From: Patescibacteria group bacterium UBA6017
GTDB lineage: Bacteria; Patescibacteriota; Saccharimonadia; UBA4664
DNA length: 64,000 bases
Assembly: GCA_002429485.1 (NCBI GenBank)
Contig: DIZX01000015.1
Location: 256,197-320,196, forward strand
Direction of reading: 5' to 3'
The notes below the pieces were generated by a model. The model searched no databases and was not told the origin of the DNA. It saw only the letters and a list, made by a program, of their open reading frames with translations. How positions within the stretch are numbered: position 1 is the stretch's first letter; every line of letters begins with the position of its first letter. Shown here piece by piece: positions 7,559-63,189 of the stretch. The position numbers and the translations under genes were made by a program.

Positions 7559-8362
7559 GTGAAACAATTCTTTAGCAATCTAGCCAATCGATATCGCTAC
7601 TCCCTGATCCTGCTTCGGCAGCTGGTTATTACCGACTTCAAGCTTCGGTACCAAGGCTCAGTACTTGGCTATGTTTGGTCGCTGCTCAAGCCCCTCGCCC
7701 TTTTTTCAATTTTGTACGTCGTCTTCGTCAGATTTCTAAGGTTTGGCGTCAAACCGGTGCCCTTGTTCCTAGGCATTGTGCTTTGGACCTATTTCGCCGA
7801 AGTCACTATGCAGGGTATCAACTCAATCGTGGGTCGCGGCGACCTTTTACGAAAGCTTAACTTTCCCCGCTACGTCATAGTTCTTTCTACCGCCTTTTCA
7901 GCATTGATCAACTTATTCCTCAATATGATTGTGGTAGGAGTCTTCATGGTCTTCACACATACTGCCCTTCGCACAGAAGCCCTTCTGCTGCCGATATTGA
8001 TAGTTGAACTCTTCGTTCTCGCAGTATCGCTGGCATTTTACCTGAGCGCGCTATTCGTTCGCTTCCGGGACCTCAGTCATATCTGGGAGTTAGTTTTGCA
8101 GGCAGCCTTCTATGCGACACCTATTATGTATAGCCTGAATTATGTTCCCGCCAAATATGCCAAATTCCTAATCCTTAACCCCTTGGCCCAAATCATCCAA
8201 GATTCCCGGTATGTCCTCCTCGATCCAAGCTCTCAGACCATTACTAGCTTCTACTCCAACCCCGCCATTCGATTGGTTCCGATTGGTCTTGTCGCAACAT
8301 TCGCTGTAATTTCAGTTATGTATTTCCGCCGTCGGTCACGCTTCTTTGCGGAGGAGGTTTAA
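7559..8362 (+). CDS. wzm: ABC-2 type polysaccharide exporter permease (Wzm/KpsM/TagG family).
   Basis: 267 aa and 6 predicted TM segments. The typical ABC-2 N-terminal amphipathic region is present, and the gene lies immediately upstream of the ATPase. Confidence 0.85.
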   Translation: MKQFFSNLANRYRYSLILLRQLVITDFKLRYQGSVLGYVWSLLKPLALFSILYVVFVRFLRFGVKPVPLFLGIVLWTYFAEVTMQGINSIVGRGDLLRKLNFPRYVIVLSTAFSALINLFLNMIVVGVFMVFTHTALRTEALLLPILIVELFVLAVSLAFYLSALFVRFRDLSHIWELVLQAAFYATPIMYSLNYVPAKYAKFLILNPLAQIIQDSRYVLLDPSSQTITSFYSNPAIRLVPIGLVATFAVISVMYFRRRSRFFAEEV

Positions 8363-8365
8363 GTT

Positions 8366-9562
8366 ATGGGCGCAAAAAGTAACGACATCGCAATTAGCGT
8401 AAATAATGTTTCAAAGAACTTCGTGCTGCCACACGAACGCATTGATACCATCAAAAGCACCTTCGTCCAGATGTTTGGCAGTAGCAACCGGGAGGTCGAG
8501 GTCCAGCACGCGCTTCGCAACATCAGCTTCGAAGTCAAAAAGGGGGAGTTCTTCGGTATCGTCGGGCGGAATGGCTCAGGTAAGAGTACTCTGCTCAAAA
8601 TATTGGCCGGGATATACCAACCATCCCACGGCAAAGTAGATGTGGTCGGAAAACTCGTACCCATCATTGAGCTGGGGGTCGGCTTTAATGGTGAACTTAC
8701 TGGTCGCGAGAATGTCTATCTCAACGGTGCTCTTTTAGGTTTTTCCCGAAAAGAGATGGAAGGCATGTATGCCGATATTGTCGAATTTGCCGAACTTGAA
8801 GAGTTTATGGATCAGAAATTGAAAAACTACTCCTCGGGCATGCAGGTCCGTTTGGCGTTTTCACTGGCTACTCGTGCCCAGGCCGACATTCTCCTCGTCG
8901 ACGAAGTCCTGGCTGTCGGCGATGCCGATTTCCAGCGTAAGTGCTTCGACTACTTTAAAAAGCTCAAAAAAGCTGGCAAGACGGTCGTATTCGTAACCCA
9001 CGATATGAGTGCAGTTCGCGAGTATTGCGGTCGGGCCATTTTGATCGATGACAGCCGTATTGAGGCCAGTGGAACTGCCGAAGAGATCGCCTCTGCCTAT
9101 ACCCGGCTGTTTACCCATAAAGTATCTGGAGTGAGTGGCTCTCAGTCGGATATGCGCTGGGGTGATGGCCAAATTAAGTACACCAAAGTGACTGCTTCAG
9201 TCGATGATGCCAGCAATCAGATCATTATAGATACCACCGTTAAAGCGATGGCCGATGTACACGAGCCGATTTTTGGATTTGCCATCAAGACTGGCGCCGG
9301 CGTAAATATCTTAGGGACTAACACCAAACTCAAGAAGATGTCTGCTAAGTCGATGCGAAAAGGCGAGACAGTTCGGCATATTTGGCGCTTAGATAATATC
9401 CTTGGGGATGGGACATTCTCGGTTTCCGCTGCAGTTGTTGCGGATGATAATGTGACAGTCCACGATTGGTGGGAAGATGCCAGTACGCTGACGATATTTA
9501 GGCCTGAGCACACCCCCTACGAAATCGAGCCCGACATATCCGTTGAGCGAAGTGATGGGTAG
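8366..9562 (+). CDS. wzt: ABC exporter ATP-binding protein Wzt with a C-terminal carbohydrate-binding extension.
   Basis: Walker A is GRNGSGKST, the signature is YSSGMQVRLAF, and Walker B is ILLVDE. About 150 aa beyond the nucleotide-binding domain is consistent with the Wzt C-terminal glycan-binding domain. Confidence 0.9.
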   Translation: MGAKSNDIAISVNNVSKNFVLPHERIDTIKSTFVQMFGSSNREVEVQHALRNISFEVKKGEFFGIVGRNGSGKSTLLKILAGIYQPSHGKVDVVGKLVPIIELGVGFNGELTGRENVYLNGALLGFSRKEMEGMYADIVEFAELEEFMDQKLKNYSSGMQVRLAFSLATRAQADILLVDEVLAVGDADFQRKCFDYFKKLKKAGKTVVFVTHDMSAVREYCGRAILIDDSRIEASGTAEEIASAYTRLFTHKVSGVSGSQSDMRWGDGQIKYTKVTASVDDASNQIIIDTTVKAMADVHEPIFGFAIKTGAGVNILGTNTKLKKMSAKSMRKGETVRHIWRLDNILGDGTFSVSAAVVADDNVTVHDWWEDASTLTIFRPEHTPYEIEPDISVERSDG

Positions 9563-20186: not shown

Positions 20187-20909
20187 CTAATACTTAGTGA
20201 GCAAGTTAAAACGAATAATTTCCCAAATAGCCTTAATGCCGTCACTTACACCGATCTTCTTGCCCTCTTCCTTGCTCCGGCCATAGTAGCTAATCCCTAT
20301 CTCGTAAACGGCCGCTTTGCTCTTGGCAATCCGAGCCGTGATCTCGGGCTCAAAACCGAATCGCTGCGCCTTAAGATCTTGTGCCAGTCGACGCGCCAAG
20401 TCGCCTCGCATCATTTTGTAGCAAGTCTCCATATCGGTGAGGTTGAGACCAGTCAGCGCATTCGAAAGAAAAGTCAGGAACTTATTTGCAACTTGGTTGC
20501 GGTAGTAAATAATCCTGTGTGGTTGTCCGCCAATAAACCTTGATCCGTAGACAACATCAGCTTGTCCGCGCTCGATCGGGTATAGGAGGCGTTTATATTC
20601 CTGGGGATCATACTCTAGGTCGGCATCTTGAACTACCACGACGTCGCCCGTAGTCTCGAGGATGCCACGCTTAAGAGCCGCCCCCTTACCCTGGTTGCGG
20701 TCTTGCAGTAGCACGCGGATAGTTTGGCTATTCGCAGCCAACTTCGACAGGATCCCTCTTGTGCCATCCGTGGAATAGTCGTCCACGATTACGATTTCTT
20801 TTTTGGTTGCCCCCAGGTCAACGGCAGCAACCTCTTTAAGAATCTTTTCGATCGTCGCCCGCTCATTGTAGCAAGGGATCACGATGGATAAGGTGTCGAT
20901 TTTTGCCAT
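20187..20909 (-). CDS. GT2 polyprenyl-phosphate glycosyltransferase (GtrB/DPM1/ArnC-like).
   Basis: [10 protein letters not shown]... and [15 protein letters not shown] (DxD region) match this family. The length is ~240 aa. Confidence 0.85.
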
Positions 20910-24315: not shown

Positions 24316-27233
24316 CTAAATCGTTACGTGTTTCGGCCCTTGTGCTCTTAGTAGCTACGGTTTCAATTGCAGCTTTTATTGTCCCTGCACATGCCACCGA
24401 CTATAATAACTCCCGTCTCATGGACGACCAGATCTTCGATAACAACGCGAGCATGAATGAGTCTCAGATTCAATCCTTTTTGAGTGCTCGTGGGTCTTGT
24501 CTTGCAAGTTATAACGACGTGGACCCAACCTGGACCGGCTCAACTTGGACATACGGCGGAAGCGCCTCAGCCGCCCACACCATCTACAAGGTCTCTCAAC
24601 AATGGGGGCTGAATCCGCAGGTAATCATTGCGACACTCCAGAAAGAGCAGAGCCTGATAACTGGCGCGGGTTGTGTTGCTCCACAAATAATCTCTGCGAT
24701 GGGGTATGATTGCCCAGATTCAAATGGCCGGTATGACTATCCCGCTATCGGAGTTACCCAAACCTGTGTTTCCCATCAGAAGAATGCGGGCTTCGCCAGG
24801 CAAGTGCTTTGGGGTTCATGGCAATTAAAGTTCAATAAAGAGCGTGCCTATGGCAATACCAGCTGGGACGGCGATGGTAGCCTTATTTACGGTGGGTACA
24901 TGACAGCCGGAGTTCGCAAGCGGTGTGATACTTGCCAGTCATTCTCCTACGACGGCAATACATCTATCGACGGGCAGGCTCTCCATATCGACAACGGCAC
25001 GACCGCCTCGCTCTACTACTACACTCCTCACCTCGGACAGTCTTTCCCCGGGATATTCGAGGGTTGGTTTGGCTCAACTCTTGTTCCCACATATGCCTCT
25101 CAGTTCGCTGGTGTGTCGGCTTACCCTACAATCGTCCCAGGCACCTCTGTAACGGTCACATTGAGCTATCAAAATGTCGGGAACCTAGCTTGGTACGACG
25201 ACGTTAGTGCGCAATCCGCGGGCCAGTTGCCGACCCACCTCGCCACCAGTCACGCCTTAAATAGGACTAGCCCATTTGTCCTGGGTGGGGGCCAAAATCG
25301 CCCTGCCCTAACTTTTGCTGCCGTGTATATGAGTGATGGGACCACGCTAGCTTCAAACCAGCACGTAGCGCAATCGAGTCAGATTGTTAAATTCTCATTA
25401 GTTCTCGTGGCCGACCGGTCGTTGCCGGCAGGGCAATACCGGGAGTATTTCCAGCCGATCATCGAGGGGGGGAGCGTAATGAATGATCCCGGCACTTTCG
25501 TGGATGTAAATGTACCCGACCTTGACGCTTCGTCAGCGGCCGGTCAATCTGGCTATCCTACTTTAAAACCCGCACAGGGGGCTGCCGCCTTCTTAACCTA
25601 TCGCAACGCCGGCAACACTCGGTGGTGCGACGATATTGCTATGGCACAGGCTTCGTCTGGGTGTCATCGCGTTCATTTGGCAACGTCTCATGCCATCAAT
25701 CGTGCCAGCGCCATAGGCTCCGAATGGGGTCCAGGTAAAAACCGCCCCGCCCTAACCTTTGCCGCCGTTTATTTGGGGGATAATATCACTCCAGCGCCAG
25801 ACCAACATGTCGCTTTGCCTGGGCAGTTTATTAAATTCACCTTCAATTTCGTTGTGCCAGAAAACCAGGCGCCCTCAACCTCGCAAGAGTACTTCCAGCC
25901 AATAGTCGAGGGTGGAGCCACCATGAACGACCCTGGAACCTTTCTAAATGTCACAATATCATCAGCGTCAACTTCTGTAGCAGTTAGTGCCCCCGCTCAG
26001 CAATTTGTTGCGGGCGAGACCAAGACGCCCTCCCTCTCCTTCAGGAATACGGGCAACGTCGCCTGGTCGAATGCTAATACCAAACTTTTGGCAGTCAATG
26101 ACTCTAGCAAGGTTTTCAAAAACATCAGCTGGGCTAGCCCTACGATAGCCGCTAGCATGAACGAGTCAAGCGTGGCTCCGGGAGGCACCGCTACCTTCAG
26201 CCCCTCTCTGACTGCGCCAGTAGGAGCCGGGAGCTATACTCTTAATTTTGCCCCCGGTGAGCAGAATGTAGCGTACGACGGCCCCAAGGCCTCAATGGGT
26301 GCGACCGTCTCTGGTGCTATATACTCTTCACTTTATGCTGGCGAGTCAGGGTATCCTCAGATTCGCCAGGGCCAGTCTGCAACTGCCTGGATTCGTTATA
26401 AGAACACGGGCAATATTGCCTGGTACGACGATACCAATGCTTCCACTGGCCCCGCTGGCGTCAAGCCAAGTCACCTCGCAACGAGTCACGAACTCAATCG
26501 TAGTAGCGTCCTAGGTAACGTCTGGGGAGGAGATAATAACCGCCCCTCAGGCAGCCCTTCCGCTGTCTACGAAAGTGACGGGACTACTCTTGCGGCTAAC
26601 CAGCATCTCATTCAGCCTGGCCAAATTGCCCAATATCGTTTCATTTTGAGCGCTCCGTTCGGCCTTGCCACGGGCATAAGACGTGAATATTACCAGCCGA
26701 TCGTAGAGGGCGGAACCACCATGAACGACCCCGGGACTTTCCTAGACGTCGAAGTATTGCCTGGCACGTATTCTAGCCAGTACTACTCGCAGTCTGGCTA
26801 CCCCAGCATAGCTCGACCCGCGAGCGGGTCTGCAACAGCCGCCGCCTACATAAGCTACAAGAATACCGGTAACACTCCCTGGTATGACTCTTCCAGTGTG
26901 ACGCCCGGCAATTTGCCCACCAACTTAGCCACTAGCCACTCCGTCAACCGAGCCAGTGGTTTGGCTGACGTATCGCCCAGCGGCTGGTGTAATAGCAGCT
27001 CCCGCAATCGCGCCGCGTGCCAGTTCGCTGCCGTATACGAAAGCGATGGTATCACTCCTGCCGCCAGCCAGCATGTAGCCCAGCCCGGCCAAATCGTGAA
27101 ATTTGCTTTCAGCTTCTCTGCCACCCCCACCACTCCGCTAGGAACCACGCGCGAGTTCTTCCAGCCCATCATCGAGGGCGCCACTACTATGAATGACCCG
27201 TGGACCTCCCTCGAAGTTACTATCACGCCTTAG
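24312..27233 (+). CDS. Large secreted repeat protein (973 aa). A signal peptide and a ~260-aa N-terminal domain are followed by five tandem ~135-aa repeats.
   Basis: The signal peptide is MTKSLRVSALVLLVATVSIAAFIVPAHA. The repeats share a (S/A)GYP ... Y-N-GN-x-W-DD ... LATSH-x-NR-S ... NRPA ... FAAVY-SDG-T ... QPGQI ... REYFQPI-EGG-x-MNDPGTF core. The third repeat is divergent. Confidence 0.75.
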   Translation: MTKSLRVSALVLLVATVSIAAFIVPAHATDYNNSRLMDDQIFDNNASMNESQIQSFLSARGSCLASYNDVDPTWTGSTWTYGGSASAAHTIYKVSQQWGLNPQVIIATLQKEQSLITGAGCVAPQIISAMGYDCPDSNGRYDYPAIGVTQTCVSHQKNAGFARQVLWGSWQLKFNKERAYGNTSWDGDGSLIYGGYMTAGVRKRCDTCQSFSYDGNTSIDGQALHIDNGTTASLYYYTPHLGQSFPGIFEGWFGSTLVPTYASQFAGVSAYPTIVPGTSVTVTLSYQNVGNLAWYDDVSAQSAGQLPTHLATSHALNRTSPFVLGGGQNRPALTFAAVYMSDGTTLASNQHVAQSSQIVKFSLVLVADRSLPAGQYREYFQPIIEGGSVMNDPGTFVDVNVPDLDASSAAGQSGYPTLKPAQGAAAFLTYRNAGNTRWCDDIAMAQASSGCHRVHLATSHAINRASAIGSEWGPGKNRPALTFAAVYLGDNITPAPDQHVALPGQFIKFTFNFVVPENQAPSTSQEYFQPIVEGGATMNDPGTFLNVTISSASTSVAVSAPAQQFVAGETKTPSLSFRNTGNVAWSNANTKLLAVNDSSKVFKNISWASPTIAASMNESSVAPGGTATFSPSLTAPVGAGSYTLNFAPGEQNVAYDGPKASMGATVSGAIYSSLYAGESGYPQIRQGQSATAWIRYKNTGNIAWYDDTNASTGPAGVKPSHLATSHELNRSSVLGNVWGGDNNRPSGSPSAVYESDGTTLAANQHLIQPGQIAQYRFILSAPFGLATGIRREYYQPIVEGGTTMNDPGTFLDVEVLPGTYSSQYYSQSGYPSIARPASGSATAAAYISYKNTGNTPWYDSSSVTPGNLPTNLATSHSVNRASGLADVSPSGWCNSSSRNRAACQFAAVYESDGITPAASQHVAQPGQIVKFAFSFSATPTTPLGTTREFFQPIIEGATTMNDPWTSLEVTITP
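25101..27230 (+). repeat. Five tandem ~400-nt coding repeats inside gene 24312..27233.
   Basis: Approximate units are 25101..25511, 25542..25955, 25989..26306 (divergent), 26337..26753 and 26787..27230, with conserved W/Y/NDPGTF positions. These are protein-level repeats, not CRISPR. Confidence 0.7.
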
Positions 27234-44369: not shown

Positions 44370-46178
44370 CTAATCCTCGCTCGCCGGCCGAATGTGCGTC
44401 ACATGCGCCGGGCTGAGGCGGAACAGCCCCTCGTCCAAACGAACCTGGTCGAAGTAGTGGGCCATAAAGCCGACCGATCGCGACAAAATAAATAGCGAGT
44501 TGAAGAATTCGGTGGCCGCCAGCGCTTCAAGTTGCTCGATCGAATAGCCTTCTTTTTCGGCCAACAAGTCCAGTAAGATGGCCGCCATGGCGCCATCCAC
44601 GTTCAGGATCAGATTACCCTTTTTGCGGGTAGTTTCGGCTTCCACACCCAGTGCAAATTTGGTGAACTTAGCCTGTTCCAGGCCGTCAACGAAGGTCAGT
44701 AATTTGGCCACGCGGGGGTCGGGGGAGTCGATACGGTATTTCTTGTGCCCTATGCCCAGAATGTAGCGCTTGTCGGCCGCGTAGGCCTCCACCAGCGCCG
44801 TGGGGGATACGCCAGTACTCACGCCTTCGAGCCAGGTCAGTGCGGCTTGGTTGACCGCTCCGCCGAAACGCGGGCCGATCGTGAGCAGTCCCGCCGCCAA
44901 AGAGCTCACCAGATCGCGCCCGGCCCTCGCCGTCACGATGGTATTGACCGCCCCCGACACGTACGGACCGTGATCGACTAGCAGTTTGAGTACATAATCC
45001 ACGAAGGCTTCGAGCTCGGCCGAGTGCACTTGCTTGCCCAAAAACATCGAGATTACAATTTTAGCGAAGGAATTATTGTCGGCCAAATCGAGTAGACTTT
45101 GATCCAGCACCTGGACCTCGCCGTCACCCATATCGTGCGAGATGGAGCTGGCTATTAGGCCGGCCTTGCGAGCCGACATGGCTTTGATCACCGGCGCCAG
45201 GTCGGCGGCCTCGACCGCTCCCGGCAATTCGGCCACGTACTGCGCAAACTCAGCAAAGGTGGTCGCACTCTTGGCGCCCGCCGCGCGCAAGGCGTCGCTC
45301 TTGGCCCGCGCCGATTCATCCACACTGGCTGCCATGGCCTTAGCATGGCCAAACTGCGGCGGCGTCTCAAACAGCTCGGCCACCGTGCCGGCGATGTAGG
45401 CCACCACCGGCTTGGTTACTGCGCCGCTGGAGATCATCTCCGCCAGCTCGTATTCATCGCGCCCGCCCAGCTCGCCGAAGTACACAATTGAAGTAGTTGC
45501 TGGGTCGGCCTCTGCCGCCGCAAACACCTCCTGCGGCGAGCTCATCGGAAACCGTTCGCCGCCCAACGCCAGCGAAAAGCTCAACGCGTGGCCGGTGGTG
45601 GCCACCAGCCGAATAATCTCACTCACCATGCCGCCGCTCGAGCTCACCACTGCTACCGAGCCGGACGTAAATAGCTTCGAATTCACCAGCTGTGGCGCCT
45701 GCACTCCGCCGATCGGACCGAGCTTCACCACGCCCGGTACTACTATGCCTACGCTGGCCCCGCCCGCTAGCCACACTCCTGCCGCGTTGGCCGTTTCGGC
45801 CAGCTCCAGCGCGTGCTTTTCGGGTAACCCTTCCGCGAACACCACCCCGCCCACCAGGGCTGGCAGTGCCTCGATGGCCTGCTTCGACGACGCCAATACT
45901 CGCCGCCCCGACGATAAGTTCAAAAATAAGTTCACCTGCTCGCTCAAGCTCGTTGGCAGCCGTCCCACGGCCGAATACACCGGTATCGTCACTTCATTTT
46001 CGCCAAAGAAGTAGCGCTCGCTTTTGCGCCCCGTAGCCACTATCGCCACTACCGACGGCGCGGTGCGACCCGCCAAAAAGTCGAAATCCAGTATCGATTG
46101 AATAATACCTTTGGAGCTTCCCAGAGCCACAATCTTGGGATCAAGCGCCCGCAGAGCTGAAATATTTAGTGTACTCAC
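44370..46178 (-). CDS. aclA: ATP-citrate lyase alpha subunit (CoA-binding/phosphohistidine domain plus citryl-CoA lyase domain).
   Basis: PPQFGHAKAM matches the ACLY catalytic His loop (QFGHAGA). GIGHKKYRIDSPDPRV matches the ACLY/citrate-synthase-like GIGHRVKSINNPDMRV. The length is 602 aa. Confidence 0.8.
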   Translation of the reverse strand: MSTLNISALRALDPKIVALGSSKGIIQSILDFDFLAGRTAPSVVAIVATGRKSERYFFGENEVTIPVYSAVGRLPTSLSEQVNLFLNLSSGRRVLASSKQAIEALPALVGGVVFAEGLPEKHALELAETANAAGVWLAGGASVGIVVPGVVKLGPIGGVQAPQLVNSKLFTSGSVAVVSSSGGMVSEIIRLVATTGHALSFSLALGGERFPMSSPQEVFAAAEADPATTSIVYFGELGGRDEYELAEMISSGAVTKPVVAYIAGTVAELFETPPQFGHAKAMAASVDESARAKSDALRAAGAKSATTFAEFAQYVAELPGAVEAADLAPVIKAMSARKAGLIASSISHDMGDGEVQVLDQSLLDLADNNSFAKIVISMFLGKQVHSAELEAFVDYVLKLLVDHGPYVSGAVNTIVTARAGRDLVSSLAAGLLTIGPRFGGAVNQAALTWLEGVSTGVSPTALVEAYAADKRYILGIGHKKYRIDSPDPRVAKLLTFVDGLEQAKFTKFALGVEAETTRKKGNLILNVDGAMAAILLDLLAEKEGYSIEQLEALAATEFFNSLFILSRSVGFMAHYFDQVRLDEGLFRLSPAHVTHIRPASED

Positions 46179-47365
46179 GCTGTTACCTCCAGCTCTTTTA
46201 TCGCCAACGGAATAATCGCCGCCAGCATCATTTCCGGCCCCGCTACCTCCCCCAGCAATCCTTCTCGCTCCAGGAAGCTGCGCATCATTGCCAGCCCCTC
46301 AACTTCGAACGGACCGCCCCGACGCACAAATACCTTGATACCTTGCTCGCGCATGGCCGCTTTGGCCTCGTCCAGCGCCGCAAGCACACCCTTGAACGTC
46401 GCCCGCACGTCGGTGAAGTTGGCTACTCCGCCGGCAATCACCAGCACCTTGCGCGGCGCCTTAGATTCGAGCATCAGCGAAATAATCTGCCGTGTGTAAA
46501 TTTGGGTTTCCTCGGCATTAGGGTTGCCGCTGTACTCACCGTAATTACCCAGTTCTTTGCCGCGCCCCTGATTAAACACCTCGTCCGCCAGCGCCACGCT
46601 CGCCCCGCCGCCGCTCAGTAGCAAGAAAATATTGCCCTGCGGGTTCAGTACCGCCAGCCGAAATGACGCCTGGCTTTGAGACGCCAGCTCTTCCACGGCC
46701 GCCGCCTGAGGCAGCGGAGCTGATGCCGTATAATCGCGAAAATCTTCCGGCGTCCAGCGTCCGTCCACAAAGAAGGCCGCCTCGGTATCTACCTCCACCG
46801 CCGCATCGAGTAGGCCCACTTTGCCGTCCATCACTACCAACGGGTTCACTTCCAAAAATGACCAGTAGTTATCATTAAAGGTCTTGGCGAGGAGCTGAAG
46901 TGTGTCCGTTGATACTCCCAGCGCCTCAGCCGCCCGTCCGGCTACCTCGGTCGTAAATACCGCCTGGCGAATTCCGTCCGCCGCATCTTCCACATTTACC
47001 CCGCCGGCCGCCGACCAGCTAATAATCGTGCCCGCCCGTTGGCGTTCGAACGCCAAATACCGTTCGGAATCTGCTGCGTGGTCCATCTGCGGCTCCACTA
47101 ACATAAATTCAAAACCCTTCGCCGCCAGCTCGGCGATATCGCCGCTCACTTCGGCTTTGGTGCGGCCCAGCTTCACCAGCCCCTTTTTGAAGCGCCCCTT
47201 CACTCCTTGATCCACTTTCACCACGTAGCTGCCGCCAGCCGCCAGCGAGTCCACCGTGGACTGCCAGTTGGCCTTCAGATCTATACTCACACCGCTATAA
47301 GCCGTGCCTAGTTCTTTAGCGAGGATTGTTTTGGCTCTGAATTCGGAAATTTTCTTGCGCGGCAT
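46175..47365 (-). CDS. aclB: ATP-citrate lyase beta subunit (ATP-grasp).
   Basis: ORF 46175..47449. The likely start is MPRKKISEFRAKTILAKEL at 47365, which parallels the ACLY N-terminus (KAISEQTGKELLYKF ... VVKPDQLIKRRGKLGL). A TATAAT lies ~26 nt upstream. Confidence 0.75.
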   Translation of the reverse strand: MPRKKISEFRAKTILAKELGTAYSGVSIDLKANWQSTVDSLAAGGSYVVKVDQGVKGRFKKGLVKLGRTKAEVSGDIAELAAKGFEFMLVEPQMDHAADSERYLAFERQRAGTIISWSAAGGVNVEDAADGIRQAVFTTEVAGRAAEALGVSTDTLQLLAKTFNDNYWSFLEVNPLVVMDGKVGLLDAAVEVDTEAAFFVDGRWTPEDFRDYTASAPLPQAAAVEELASQSQASFRLAVLNPQGNIFLLLSGGGASVALADEVFNQGRGKELGNYGEYSGNPNAEETQIYTRQIISLMLESKAPRKVLVIAGGVANFTDVRATFKGVLAALDEAKAAMREQGIKVFVRRGGPFEVEGLAMMRSFLEREGLLGEVAGPEMMLAAIIPLAIKELEVTA

Positions 47366-47433: not shown

Positions 47434-49227
47434 ATGGTGAAACCTTCAAGCGACTTCCTCGAAGACGAGGACACTGGGCAATCCGAACTCAGCTCGCAGT
47501 GGCAGCGTGCTCCGCTGTGGCTTCGTGGGGTCGGCTTAATCTTTGTTGGCGGGTTCTTGTTGGTGGGTAGCTTTGAGCTGGTCTACGCCGGTAAGATCTA
47601 TCCGGGCATTTCCGCCGATGGCGTTTCGCTGGCTGGTGCCACCCGGGCTTCCGCTGCCAAACAGCTCAATTCCAAAATTGATACCTTTTCCGGCGGCGTT
47701 GTCACCATCTCGAATGGCGACACCAATCTCCGCATCCCCGTGGCCGGTCTCGACGTGTCCTATGACACCAACAAAGCCGTCGATCTGGCCTACCAATACG
47801 GGCGCGAGGGGAGTTGGACCAACCGGCTTCATCAGCAATTACGCGCCCTTCTGGGCCGGGCAACCAACTTTTCGGCCTACGGCTATTCCGATACCCGTTT
47901 GGCCCCCTACGTGGTTCAGCTTGGCGATGATTTATCCACGCCGGTAGCCGACGCCAGCCTAAACTTTGACTCCGACAAGCCCCAGGTCACCCCGGCGCAG
48001 TCCGGCACCCGCCTCGATTATGGCCGCCTCACTCAGCTCGTTGGCGACCGGCTGTCCCAAACCTCTATCGACCCGATCCCCGCGCCCGTCTACCAGCTCT
48101 CGCCGGTCCTCGGCACCGATGCTCTCACGGCCGTCACCAACCAACTCGGCAGCTACCTGGCCGGTCCCATCACCCTCAGCTACAGCGGCACCGAAACCAC
48201 CATCGATCAGAAGACTATCATTTCGTGGATCCAGGTCGGCGCCCGCCCCACGAAGTTATTCCTTAACTCTCACGACCTAGCCGATTTATACCCGCCGCCG
48301 GCCGCGGCCAATCTGGGCTTGAGCAAGCCCGCCGTCGCCAAGTACGTTACCGATCTGGCGGCTCAGCTCGACCAAACGCCCCAAAACTCCGGCTTGGCCA
48401 TGAAGGACGGCGTGCTGGCTATCGTGCAGGCCAGCCGCACCGGCATCAAGCTCGATCAAGCCGACACTACCAGTGCCATCATCGGCAGCCTGGGTCGCAC
48501 CTCCGGCGACCGCCTCATCACTCTCAAGCTCGAGACCACCCAAGCCGCCGTCAACGAGTCTAATCTCGACTCGCTCGGCATCAAGGAGCAAATCTCGGAG
48601 GGCGAAACCTACTTCCCCGGCTCACCCAGCACCCGCCTCACCAACGTCCGCGCCGGCGCCAAGCGCTTCAATGGCGTCTTGCTGGCTCCCGGCGAAACCT
48701 TTTCCTTCGGCAAGCTCCTCGGCGCCGTCGACGCTTCCACCGGTTACGTCCCCGAACTCGTCATCCTCGGTGACCATGAGGAAAAGCAGTATGGCGGGGG
48801 ACTCTGCCAGGTATCGTCCACCGCTTTCCGCGCTGCTTTGGCTGCGGGCCTGCCCATTACCGAGCGCGTCAATCACGCTTTCGCCATTAGTTATTACACC
48901 TGGCCCTACACCGTCCCCGGTATGGACGCCACGATTTATTACCCCGCCGTTGATCTCAAATTCACCAACGATACCGGCAGTTACATCCTTATGCAGACCA
49001 TTATGAATGGTGTCGATCTCAAGTTTGACTTCTTTGGTACCAAAACTAAGACCGGCGTCATTCGCGGCCCCAACTTCGTCACTGGTACGAACGACGCCAC
49101 CCAACCTTCGCACACCGTCTTCTACCGTGACGTGCTCGACCTCGCAGGCAACGTCACCAAGACCGACACCTTCAATACCTACTACAAGTCGAGCAAGGAC
49201 TTCCCGGTTACCAAACAGTTCAACTAA
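47434..49227 (+). CDS. VanW-domain protein with an N-terminal membrane anchor.
   Basis: GGGLCQVSSTAFRAALAAGLPITERVNHAF...YPAVDLKF is VanW-like. A TM segment is present near the N-terminus. Confidence 0.8.
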   Translation: MVKPSSDFLEDEDTGQSELSSQWQRAPLWLRGVGLIFVGGFLLVGSFELVYAGKIYPGISADGVSLAGATRASAAKQLNSKIDTFSGGVVTISNGDTNLRIPVAGLDVSYDTNKAVDLAYQYGREGSWTNRLHQQLRALLGRATNFSAYGYSDTRLAPYVVQLGDDLSTPVADASLNFDSDKPQVTPAQSGTRLDYGRLTQLVGDRLSQTSIDPIPAPVYQLSPVLGTDALTAVTNQLGSYLAGPITLSYSGTETTIDQKTIISWIQVGARPTKLFLNSHDLADLYPPPAAANLGLSKPAVAKYVTDLAAQLDQTPQNSGLAMKDGVLAIVQASRTGIKLDQADTTSAIIGSLGRTSGDRLITLKLETTQAAVNESNLDSLGIKEQISEGETYFPGSPSTRLTNVRAGAKRFNGVLLAPGETFSFGKLLGAVDASTGYVPELVILGDHEEKQYGGGLCQVSSTAFRAALAAGLPITERVNHAFAISYYTWPYTVPGMDATIYYPAVDLKFTNDTGSYILMQTIMNGVDLKFDFFGTKTKTGVIRGPNFVTGTNDATQPSHTVFYRDVLDLAGNVTKTDTFNTYYKSSKDFPVTKQFN

Positions 49228-49245: not shown

Positions 49246-49274
49246 TTGACACTACGGCTTTTGTTCGGTAAACT
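49246..49274 (+). promoter_or_regulatory. Candidate lexA promoter TTGACA-N17-TAAACT, with a GTTCGGTAAAC element overlapping the -10 as a possible operator.
   Basis: Hexamer matches only. The operator assignment is speculative. Confidence 0.3.
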
Positions 49275-49304
49275 TTAATCAAGTTAAGCCTGGGAGGGTA
49301 ACCG

Positions 49305-49923
49305 ATGGCAGAGCCACTAACAAAGCGTCAAAAAGAAGTTCTCGACTTCGTGTCCCAATTCATCGAGCTGCACGGCTACGCGCCCAGCTATCGTGAAATT
49401 GCGACTTATTTCAAATACGGCTCCGTTGCGACCGTGGCTGAGCACATTGAGTCGCTCGTCGGCAAGGGCATGCTCAGCAAAAGCGACAATGAGGCCCGCT
49501 CCATCCAGCTAGTCAAAACCGATGTTGATGCTACTCCCAGCATCTCCCTGCCAATTCTTGGCCTCGTGGCTGCCGGCCAACCCATTGAAACCCTCGGCAT
49601 GCATCCCGAAACCCTCGAAGTTCCGCCTTTCATGGTCGGCCGCAAGAACTCCTACGTCCTCCAGGTCAAAGGCGACTCCATGATCGACGAAGGCATTCAC
49701 ACCGGCGACTACGTAGTCGTTACCGAGAAGCCCGTCCCCTCAAAACGGCGAGATGGTCATTGCCCTCATCAACGGTGGCGAGGCCACCCTCAAGCGGTAC
49801 TACAAAGAGAAGACGCACATCCGCCTCCAGCCCTCCAATGCCGCCATGGACCCCATAATCATCGAGCCCGGAACGCCCATCGAAATTCAGGGCGTTGTCA
49901 TCGGTCTCATCCGTAAGTACTAG
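49305..49923 (+). CDS. lexA: LexA repressor, interrupted by an apparent +1 frameshift in a C4 run at 49736..49739.
   Basis: The N-terminal wHTH and the Ser motif GDSM are in frame 0 (ORF 49305..49916). The Lys motif and canonical C-terminus NGEMVIALINGGEATLKRYYKEKTHIRLQPSNAAMDPIIIEPGTPIEIQGVVIGLIRKY* are in the +1 frame ending at 49923. Deleting one C restores a 205-aa LexA. Confidence 0.85.
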
Positions 49924-60825: not shown

Positions 60826-61794
60826 TTAACTATCCGCGTGGCTTGATGAGAAATGCTTGTATATGTCCGCTATCCAGTTTGAATGCAGGGCCCGGGCATC
60901 GGTCACCCACCCCATACTTGGCACCTTAGTGGGGTCATCCGATAGATAGTAGTGCTCCGGAAGCTTATGCCCGCTCGCAAGGTCGCGCCTGTATTCGGCG
61001 TCCAGATCATATTTGTCATATTCGGGGTGTCCTTGTATGAAATAATCATGTCCGCCGGCATCATTCTTGTCTTCCGCGAGCAGCCAGCCAATTTTGTCGT
61101 TTGATGCCAAAACCGATATATTAGCCGCCAACAACGCCTCGGTCGGTACATCGCCCCACCTCGAGTGAGGAGCAACTATGTCATCATTCATATTCAACAC
61201 CATACTGCTCGAGGTGCCATTGGGTACTTTGTGCGCAAAAACCCCAAATATCTTCTCTTCCACCGCAGATCGCTCTAGTCCATATATCGTGTGCAGGGCG
61301 AAGTGGCTCGCCAAACAGGAATATATTGTTGAATAGATATTACTGCGTGCATATCTTATTACTCCCTCTAGCTGCTTGGCGTATCGTATCTGAGAGAAGT
61401 CTAAAAGTTTGTGACCCTTAGCGTTATCCGTCTGATTTAGCTCAAGATTATCACCCGTAATAATTAGCCCGTCTAGACCGATCTCAGCTGCCTGAGAAAA
61501 CGCTTCATAGCGAGATAACTGTTTGGCTCTGCTCCCGCCGTTTCGTTCGCGGTCATCATCATCAAATTTCAATAATATCGGCTCGATCTGCAGCAGGGTA
61601 TGGCTGATATATTTCAGCCATTGTTCCTCGGTTTGCTTCATCACTGCCGCCGGCATTAAATTCAGTAGGCCAATCCGCGCCGGCCGAATGTCTTGCCTGT
61701 TCGCAGCTGCTTCGGAAATCACTGAAGCTCCCTTTTGGCGAAGGTTAAAGAATAGCGGGTCTTGCTTCAATCGATCGGGGATTATGATAGACAT
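60826..61794 (-). CDS. metA: Homoserine O-acyltransferase (MetA/HTS family).
   Basis: IRPARIGLLNLMP, GLIITGDNLE, APHSRWGDVP and GHPEYD parallel the E. coli MetA motifs. Confidence 0.85.
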   Translation of the reverse strand: MSIIIPDRLKQDPLFFNLRQKGASVISEAAANRQDIRPARIGLLNLMPAAVMKQTEEQWLKYISHTLLQIEPILLKFDDDDRERNGGSRAKQLSRYEAFSQAAEIGLDGLIITGDNLELNQTDNAKGHKLLDFSQIRYAKQLEGVIRYARSNIYSTIYSCLASHFALHTIYGLERSAVEEKIFGVFAHKVPNGTSSSMVLNMNDDIVAPHSRWGDVPTEALLAANISVLASNDKIGWLLAEDKNDAGGHDYFIQGHPEYDKYDLDAEYRRDLASGHKLPEHYYLSDDPTKVPSMGWVTDARALHSNWIADIYKHFSSSHADS

Positions 61795-61806
61795 GGATTT
61801 AGCTTA

Positions 61807-62274
61807 TCAGAGAGCCCCATCAATAAGTTGCAGCTTGATTGCGTCAATTAATCCCGGCTCGATATCTCGTACAGCCGTTTTATCGTAGTGATGGGCAAAA
61901 TTCGGGTCCTCAAACACCACACCGTTCACTACCGGTGCCGTTTGGTAACGAGGCCAAATGTGCAGGTGAAGGTGAGGGTCAGGGGAGTCACTTTTGTAGG
62001 CATTATTCATCAGTGCGGTCCAGTTGAAGCAGGTTGCATCAAATACTTTCGTCGCTGTTTCCTCAAACCGCCTGACTACTTCCCCGAGCTCAGCCCACTC
62101 ATCCGGCGTAAGTGAGCTCAAGTGCCCAGCATGGCGCTTCAAATTGACGTACGATCGTCCCAGATACGCTTGGTTTGGAGCCAGATCAACCTTCCAATAC
62201 TTAGTCTCAAACAGGGTGAGATTATCTTGTGCTAAGGCAGAGCAGCTATTGCAGGTCGAGGGCGTGTTATTCAT
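61807..62274 (-). CDS. HIT-family nucleotide hydrolase/transferase.
   Basis: The histidine triad HLHLHIWPR is present. Confidence 0.8.
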   Translation of the reverse strand: MNNTPSTCNSCSALAQDNLTLFETKYWKVDLAPNQAYLGRSYVNLKRHAGHLSSLTPDEWAELGEVVRRFEETATKVFDATCFNWTALMNNAYKSDSPDPHLHLHIWPRYQTAPVVNGVVFEDPNFAHHYDKTAVRDIEPGLIDAIKLQLIDGAL

Positions 62275-62292
62275 GATTCTTAGCCTTACCGG

Positions 62293-62895
62293 TTATCGCT
62301 TTACCTTATGCCGTTTGCTCGCCAGCCAGTCCGGTACTTCGGAGAATCTAACCTCTTCCCAGCCGTCGATTTCTTCTTCAGTAACATCGTAAACTGCCTG
62401 ATAGGCTGGCTCTACGCTCCCGTGAAGGGCCTTTCTTTCATCTAGCCCGAGCTTTTTCGCCGCCTCGTAAAGCGATTTACTATCTTTAGCCTCAAGCTCA
62501 ACGAAGCTAGGTATCCACGGCCAAGAGTCGAGCTCGATTTCAACCGCCCCAAGCTTCCAGCTTTCCCTTTTAGTCTCTTGGAGTGATTTCGACTCGAGAC
62601 CAATCGCGTACAAAAAGGCGCACGTCGCATCGAAATCTGTCACAGTTACCGTTACTTCTTGCGTTCCGTGGAGGGTCCGATCGTTTACCTGCTTGTAGCT
62701 GAGCGTTATTCTCTCGCCTTCATCCCGAACCCTCACCCAGCCGCCAACTTCGCCGAGGCGTTTATCGGGATAATCAAACACCCGACGCACCATTTTTCGT
62801 TCAGGTGCAACCAATTCTGCCCCGGCACTCTTGAGGATATCTCGAAAGGCCACGTGATCGATATTCAGCCACTTAGCTTCTATTTCAGTTTCCAT
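62293..62895 (-). CDS. CYTH-domain protein (triphosphate tunnel metalloenzyme / class IV adenylate cyclase-like).
   Basis: The N-terminal EIEAKW (ExExK) motif is present. The length is 200 aa. Confidence 0.7.
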   Translation of the reverse strand: METEIEAKWLNIDHVAFRDILKSAGAELVAPERKMVRRVFDYPDKRLGEVGGWVRVRDEGERITLSYKQVNDRTLHGTQEVTVTVTDFDATCAFLYAIGLESKSLQETKRESWKLGAVEIELDSWPWIPSFVELEAKDSKSLYEAAKKLGLDERKALHGSVEPAYQAVYDVTEEEIDGWEEVRFSEVPDWLASKRHKVKR

Positions 62896-63189
62896 ATCCA
62901 GTAATATAACAAAAAAGAGGCCCGATAAGGCCTCTTTTTGCTTTATGTCCTTCGGTATGGGGTTGCCGAGTTCACCGCAACCGCTAAAGAACTTACTCGA
63001 TACCTATAGTCACATCATCAACGGGGGCATGGTTATCGGCCATATTCTCCTGTTGGTCATTGCCCGCCGTCTCTGCAGAGTAGGGGGGGTGAACCCACGC
63101 TCCTCGTACCCTGCAACGGGGGCAAAATGTCTTCTATGAATAAGGGGCTCTTCGTGTCCTCCTCATTCCCCGGGCGGAAACTATCCATA

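Follow-up and report, generated by a model that had tools for sequence, protein, structure and literature searches.

The LexA repressor is represented by the NCBIfam equivalog TIGR00498, by the Pfam domains PF01726 and PF00717, and by known structures such as those of the Thermotoga maritima (3K2Z) and E. coli (1JHH) proteins. In several bacteria the loss of LexA has deleterious or lethal effects, except where division inhibitors have been lost as well. Two further described systems bear on a gene of which the second part lies in the +1 frame, namely programmed +1 ribosomal frameshifting of the prfB/RF2 type and the frameshift artefacts of MAGs. Productive transcriptional slippage, by which a broken frame might also be expressed, needs a run of about 8-9 or more identical bases, and phase-variable homopolymer tracts typically have a length of at least 7.

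Here we describe a lexA gene at positions 49305-49923 of a 64-kb stretch of DNA (the window, meaning the whole of the 64,000 nucleotides analysed) that is divided between two reading frames by a single extra A. The names attached to the homologues point to a member of the Saccharibacteria/Saccharimonadia as the organism. The uninterrupted lexA reading frame was not encountered in the window, where it breaks at 49742-49745, and was found intact in all the other assemblies. The split is ordinary and most likely reflects either a mistake in the assembly or a private mutation of very recent date. The coordinates of the annotated features are collected in Table 1.

The two parts of the lexA gene

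Translation of the open reading frames placed lexA in two frames. The product of frame 0 has 203 residues and follows native LexA through Ser146, after which 57 nonsense residues were found. This part of the gene contains the winged-helix domain for DNA binding, the Ala90-Gly91 pair at which cleavage occurs (49572-49577) and the codon of the nucleophile Ser125 (49677-49679), and the Pfam domain LexA_DNA_bind (PF01726) was detected at residues 3-65 with E = 3.5e-17. After a TAG at 49714-49716, the +1 frame opens at 49717 and encodes ...NGEMVIALINGGEATLKRYYKEK...IRKY. It contains the codon of the general base Lys163 (49792-49794) and the TAG stop of the gene (49921-49923).

Peptidase_S24 (PF00717) is distributed over both frames as the sequence is written, with profile positions 1-61 of 116 in frame 0 and 68-116 in the +1 frame. 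Removal of one A restores the domain to positions 1-116 of 116 (E = 1.4e-29). A codon-usage score trained on the long ORFs of the window switches frame at about 49745, and a tblastn search of the window with the intact protein returned two pieces in differing frames, 49305-49745 and 49732-49920. The initial annotation had described a lexA split by a single-base frameshift, in which frame 0 supplies the DNA-binding domain and the Ser nucleophile (GDSM) and runs on as nonsense to 49916, while the +1 frame supplies the LexA C-terminus with the catalytic Lys and ends at 49923. This description agrees with the two frames, the Pfam halves, the codon-usage switch and the tblastn pieces. The same tblastn search found no second lexA copy in the 64-kb window.

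When one base is deleted, the gene encodes 205 aa and its product matches the whole of TIGR00498 with 188.4 bits, against a curated whole-protein cut-off of 110.95 bits for this equivalog. The repaired protein aligns over residues 3-204 with LexA chains in the PDB, 3K2Z and 1JHH among them, and carries Ala90-Gly91, Ser125 (GDSM) and Lys163 (LKRYY), the codon of the last occurring only in the +1 frame.

Table 1. Features of the lexA locus and coverage of the window by other assemblies.
Feature	Positions	Strand	Remarks
Promoter-like site TTGACA, 17-nt spacer, TAAACT	49246..49274	+	Consensus scan, 10/12 matches (sigma-70-like)
Conserved promoter-spacer block ACTWCGGYTTYTGTTCGRTA, 20-nt	49252..49272	+	Nearly invariant in 8 Saccharimonadia loci, flanks diverge
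Ribosome-binding site GGGAGGG	49292..49298	+	6 nt before ATG; conserved in 8-locus alignment
Frame-0 ORF, ATG 49305 to TAA stop 49914-49916	49305..49916	+	203 aa
lexA 5' part, frame 0, native residues 1-146	49305..49742	+	PF01726 and first half of PF00717
CCCC run, native, not the lesion	49736..49739	+	Unchanged in L004, L005, L007-L011, L022, L023
A4 run with one extra A, actual frameshift site	49742..49745	+	Every other assembly has A3
Out-of-frame tail of the 203-aa product, 57 residues (KRRDGHCPHQ...) and TAA stop	49743..49916	+	
lexA 3' part, +1 frame, residues 147-205	49744..49923	+	PF00717 profile positions 68-116
Small ORF, 74 aa	49934..50158	+	Gene call in L005, L008, L009, L011
Assemblies with AAA and intact 205-aa lexA			JGI 3300012001, JGI 3300013758, Logan SRR1586317, Logan SRR1586304
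Assemblies with AAA and intact 205-aa lexA			ENA ERZ27248656 (490,927-bp contig), ERZ27248653, ERZ27248637
Match to L012	1-19562		Exact
Coverage by L018, L019, L020	17587-37901		
Match to L020	20441-33320		Identical
Match to L019			One substitution
Match to L018	22819-37901		Identical; five substitutions and small rearrangements in remaining part
Match to L004	37434-59228		
Match to L022 and L023	49713-64000		

Position of the extra base

The lesion is an extra A in the A run that spans the codons of Ser146 and Asn147, with TCA AAC becoming TCA AAA C, so that the window has TCAAAAC where TCAAAC is found elsewhere. Over a longer stretch the window reads GTCCCCTCAAAACGG, and both L004 (JGI 3300012001, 21.8 kb) and L005 (Logan SRR1586317, 10.5 kb) read GTCCCCTCAAACGG. 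Each of these two contigs differs from the window by no mismatch and by exactly one gap, which lies in the A run. The same gap is the sole one over 20.6 kb in L007 and L008 and over 14.3 kb in L022 and L023, where the DNA is otherwise identical. Since the nearby CCCC run is kept in all the contigs of the same population and only the A run differs, the extra base is an A at 49742-49745.

The protein sequences agree with this position. Among the 120 closest homologues, three did not match the pattern used for the search; P-S-N-G-[ED] was found at the junction in 116 of the 117 that did, and the remaining one has H-S-N-G-E. Deleting an A gives Ser146-Asn147, whereas deleting a C would give Gln146, which occurs in none of the homologues. 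The initial annotation had located the lesion in the CCCC run, 3-6 nt away from its true site, and had suggested that removal of one C would give a normal 205-aa LexA; the one-base removal holds (188 bits with TIGR00498), with the correction that the base to be removed is an A. Its proposed read test, three versus four C, was likewise aimed at the wrong run, as the public contigs all keep CCCC and differ in the A run. A general lesson is that the site of a frameshift repair is best set by near-identical sequences and not by the nearest homopolymer.

Comparison with other assemblies

Contigs for comparison were found through residue-for-residue matches to the VanW-like protein encoded at 47434-49227 and then to three further proteins of the window, and were aligned to the window by blastn. 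The intact LexA (P0121, which equals the window minus one A) is present in NCBI, JGI, Logan and ENA, where it was found on nine contigs from seven assemblies (Table 1); as these assemblies may share read sets, they amount to fewer than seven independent witnesses. No mismatches were observed in the DNA flanking lexA over 10-22 kb, and none near lexA in any of the seven. The 203-aa product, on the other hand, forms a singleton cluster among about 15 billion proteins, found in NCBI only, where it lies on a single 390,653-bp contig, and the frameshift therefore belongs to the deposited MAG record.

The entire 64-kb window is covered by other assemblies at 100% or near-100% identity, and the A in lexA is the only position at which the window departs from every assembly that covers it. 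Each of the substitutions observed is confined to a single other assembly, with the remaining ones agreeing with the window. Microdiversity between samples was seen in L010, with four substitutions and a 2-nt indel, and in L024, with six substitutions; the intact lexA allele is also carried by the slightly divergent L010. Both halves of lexA in the window share 100% identity with the intact alleles, and no second lesion was found.

All of the top 120 homologues are full length, with 205-210 aa encoded in single ORFs. Three assemblies of a relative (L001-L003; Logan SRR23617253, ENA ERZ28573577 and NCBI GCA_043740495.1) have DNA that is about 85% identical over the region and a LexA protein that is about 99% identical, and this disparity indicates strong purifying selection on the LexA family. 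The contigs of these three assemblies all break off within the VanW-like gene at one shared position, 1634 bp upstream of lexA, which points to a repeat or to a junction that varies between strains.

Possible assembly errors in the window and in related assemblies

The runs of at least five identical bases in the window comprise 90 of A, 63 of C, 40 of G and 53 of T, and those of 5-8 bases are the same in the other assemblies. The sequencing platform is therefore not one that commonly makes homopolymer errors. Candidates for other frameshifts were taken from codon-usage frame scoring and from overlaps of open frames, and were judged by the public gene calls on identical DNA. Those at 20840/21184 and 36788/37306 and the three in-frame ORFs at 60826-63003 proved to be normal separate genes or intergenic DNA. 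With no other frameshift and with concordant homopolymer runs, the assembly of the window is not generally noisy.

Private insertions were nonetheless found in the same sample series. The contig L021 (JGI 3300012008 Ga0120174_1003420) has three private 1-nt insertions within 6.2 kb, at window positions 26013, 26154 and 31633, which disrupt a gene of 973 aa and change one for an NTP-transferase; both of these genes are intact in the window and in L018, L019 and L020. From these insertions a base rate of assembly indels in the series can be taken. Another MAG of the same population, NCBI GCA_002413465.1 (DHWZ01000029.1; L013 and L018), has an N-filled gap and a local rearrangement around window 22.0-22.8 kb. 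Compared with the other assemblies, its ABC2_membrane gene is split from 267 aa into 156 + 88 and its glycosyltransferase gene from 392 aa into 97 + 281, and its UDP-glucose dehydrogenase is shortened from 437 aa to 104.

Origin of the frameshift

From an insertion that is private to one assembly, in a gene without other decay, we infer an artefact rather than a real allele, and we regard a consensus or assembly error in one MAG as the probable source of the extra A. This reading is further favoured because private 1-nt insertions demonstrably occur in the sample series, as in L021, and because, with no private substitution in 64 kb, an indel made by the assembly is a priori far commoner than a real one. 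The extra A would then most likely have arisen in sequencing, assembly or polishing and the cells would be without it, so that the population sampled in several related metagenomes would have an ordinary single-copy lexA of 205 codons, presumably autoregulated. What counts against an error is that a sporadic one at a mere A3 run is unusual, the more so in an assembly that is otherwise clean. De Bruijn graph assemblers normally require several variant-carrying reads behind a path, and the extra A may thus exist in some reads, as a real allele. Read literally, the window would encode a 203-aa protein with its DNA-binding domain, its cleavage site and its Ser125 intact but lacking Lys163 together with the C-terminal strands of the S24 dimerisation/protease domain, which would make it a non-functional repressor. 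From established LexA biochemistry such a truncation is expected to lose repression and to derepress the SOS regulon. A genuine and very recent lexA null allele, in which the inserted A is the major or the assembler-captured allele in the sample of the MAG, is an unlikely explanation that nevertheless has several observations on its side: besides the support by reads that graph assemblers need and the site being only an A3 run, the variant sits in a deposited NCBI assembly, there is no other private difference in 64 kb that would mark this assembly as noisy, and the population shows microdiversity between samples (L010, L024). Cells with this allele would make a LexA without Lys163 and without the dimerising C-terminal strands, and their SOS regulon would be constitutively derepressed. 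Against this stand the intact allele in every other assembly of the population, including L010, the lack of linked substitutions in 64 kb and of secondary decay, the strong conservation of LexA in the clade (120/120 top homologues full length) and the absence of a compensating second lexA copy in the window; the cost that loss of LexA has in several bacteria also counts against it. It is doubtful that a lexA-null lineage of an environmental Saccharibacterium recently arose and reached the majority in one sample. If it did, a constitutively derepressed SOS response would be tolerated or selected in a reduced-genome episymbiont, and such a natural loss of lexA function in a Saccharibacterium would offer a modest but usable handle on SOS in CPR bacteria. 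A decaying pseudogene, with several lesions or relaxed constraint, does not fit, as the lesion is single and the rest of lexA is 100% identical to the intact alleles.

The initial annotation had left a choice between an error, a pseudogene and a slippery site; the first two remain, with the error favoured, and the slippery site falls away as no relative carries it. That full-length LexA is produced through a programmed +1 ribosomal frameshift or through slippage of transcription at CCCC/AAAA is extremely improbable, even though two short homopolymers lie at the junction and, with the +1 frame open from 49717, a shift anywhere in 49717-49745 would give the full-length protein. No relative, whether near or far, has the frameshift, and A3 is found throughout the other contigs of the same population. 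The required shift would have to take place at UCA-AAA-CGG, where the A-site codon CGG is a common one (14 per 1000 codons, 27% of Arg), tRNA-Lys is unable to re-pair from AAA onto AAC, and neither an in-frame stop, a rare or hungry codon or a long run at the site nor a Shine-Dalgarno-like stimulator upstream of it was found. The A4 and C4 runs are also far too short for productive transcriptional slippage. Programmed frameshifting is thus rejected, on the grounds of absent conservation and of the sequence context. A phase-variable homopolymer was rejected as well; the tract has three or four A, below the typical length, and differs in only one of eight assemblies (the window and seven others).

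With an artefact as the preferred reading, the biological weight of the broken gene is small and its main value lies in curation. The 1-nt insertion at 49742-49745 of the deposited MAG makes a normal lexA look like a pseudogene, and annotation pipelines would drop lexA or call the chimeric 203-aa product.

Regions upstream and downstream of lexA

The -35 hexamer of the promoter-like site and the spacer behind it are conserved upstream of lexA in eight Saccharimonadia loci. Judging from this conservation, the block at 49252-49272 may be a LexA operator peculiar to the clade, with the form TWCGG-N6-TTCGG or CTWC-N7-GTTC. A search upstream of lexA for the canonical Gram-positive SOS box, GAAC-N4-GTTC, gave no site with at most one mismatch, and the two motifs guessed from the conserved block showed no enrichment elsewhere in the window.

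The small ORF downstream starts 11 nt past the lexA stop, and a small ORF after lexA is also present in the more distant L106 and L107. The 74-aa ORF, for which no NCBIfam family match was obtained, is probably co-transcribed with lexA and could encode an SOS-linked small protein.

Other features of the window

A pair of genes at 44370-46178 and 46175-47365, both on the reverse strand, has an architecture resembling that of ATP-citrate lyase. ATP-grasp, Citrate_synth_N and Citrate_bind domains were found in the 396-aa protein of the pair, and CoA-ligase, Succ_CoA_lig and citryl-CoA-lyase/citrate-synthase domains in the 602-aa protein. All the NCBIfam matches of the pair lie well under the cut-offs of the succinyl-CoA-ligase and citrate-synthase models. 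Such a pair is unexpected in a reduced Saccharibacteria genome.

A large cluster for cell-envelope polysaccharide occupies approximately 500-24300 of the window. It comprises about ten Glycos_transf_1/4 genes and a Wzm/Wzt-type ABC exporter (7559-9562), together with epimerases, a UDP-glucose dehydrogenase, a methyltransferase and two Acyl_transf_3 genes, and toxin-antitoxin-like genes of the FitA/PIN and SocA_Panacea types are also contained in it. No tRNA genes and no Rfam families above the gathering threshold were found in window 1-64000.

Comparison with known systems

The repaired protein matches LexA as it is known from TIGR00498, from PF01726 with PF00717 and from the Thermotoga maritima and E. 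coli structures. The locus differs from this known system in two respects, in that one extra A breaks the frame after codon 146, and in that the region upstream has another conserved block in the promoter spacer in place of a GAAC-N4-GTTC box. Its resemblance to programmed +1 frameshifting of the prfB/RF2 type is limited to the +1 shift that is needed and to the open overlap between the frames, whereas the conservation, the stop or hungry codon, the internal Shine-Dalgarno sequence and the possibility of re-pairing are missing here. When compared with the frameshift artefacts of MAGs, the locus is distinguished by the shortness of the run (A3 to A4) and by an assembly that is clean elsewhere, but it shares with them a private single-base insertion in DNA that is otherwise identical, in a gene that shows no further decay.
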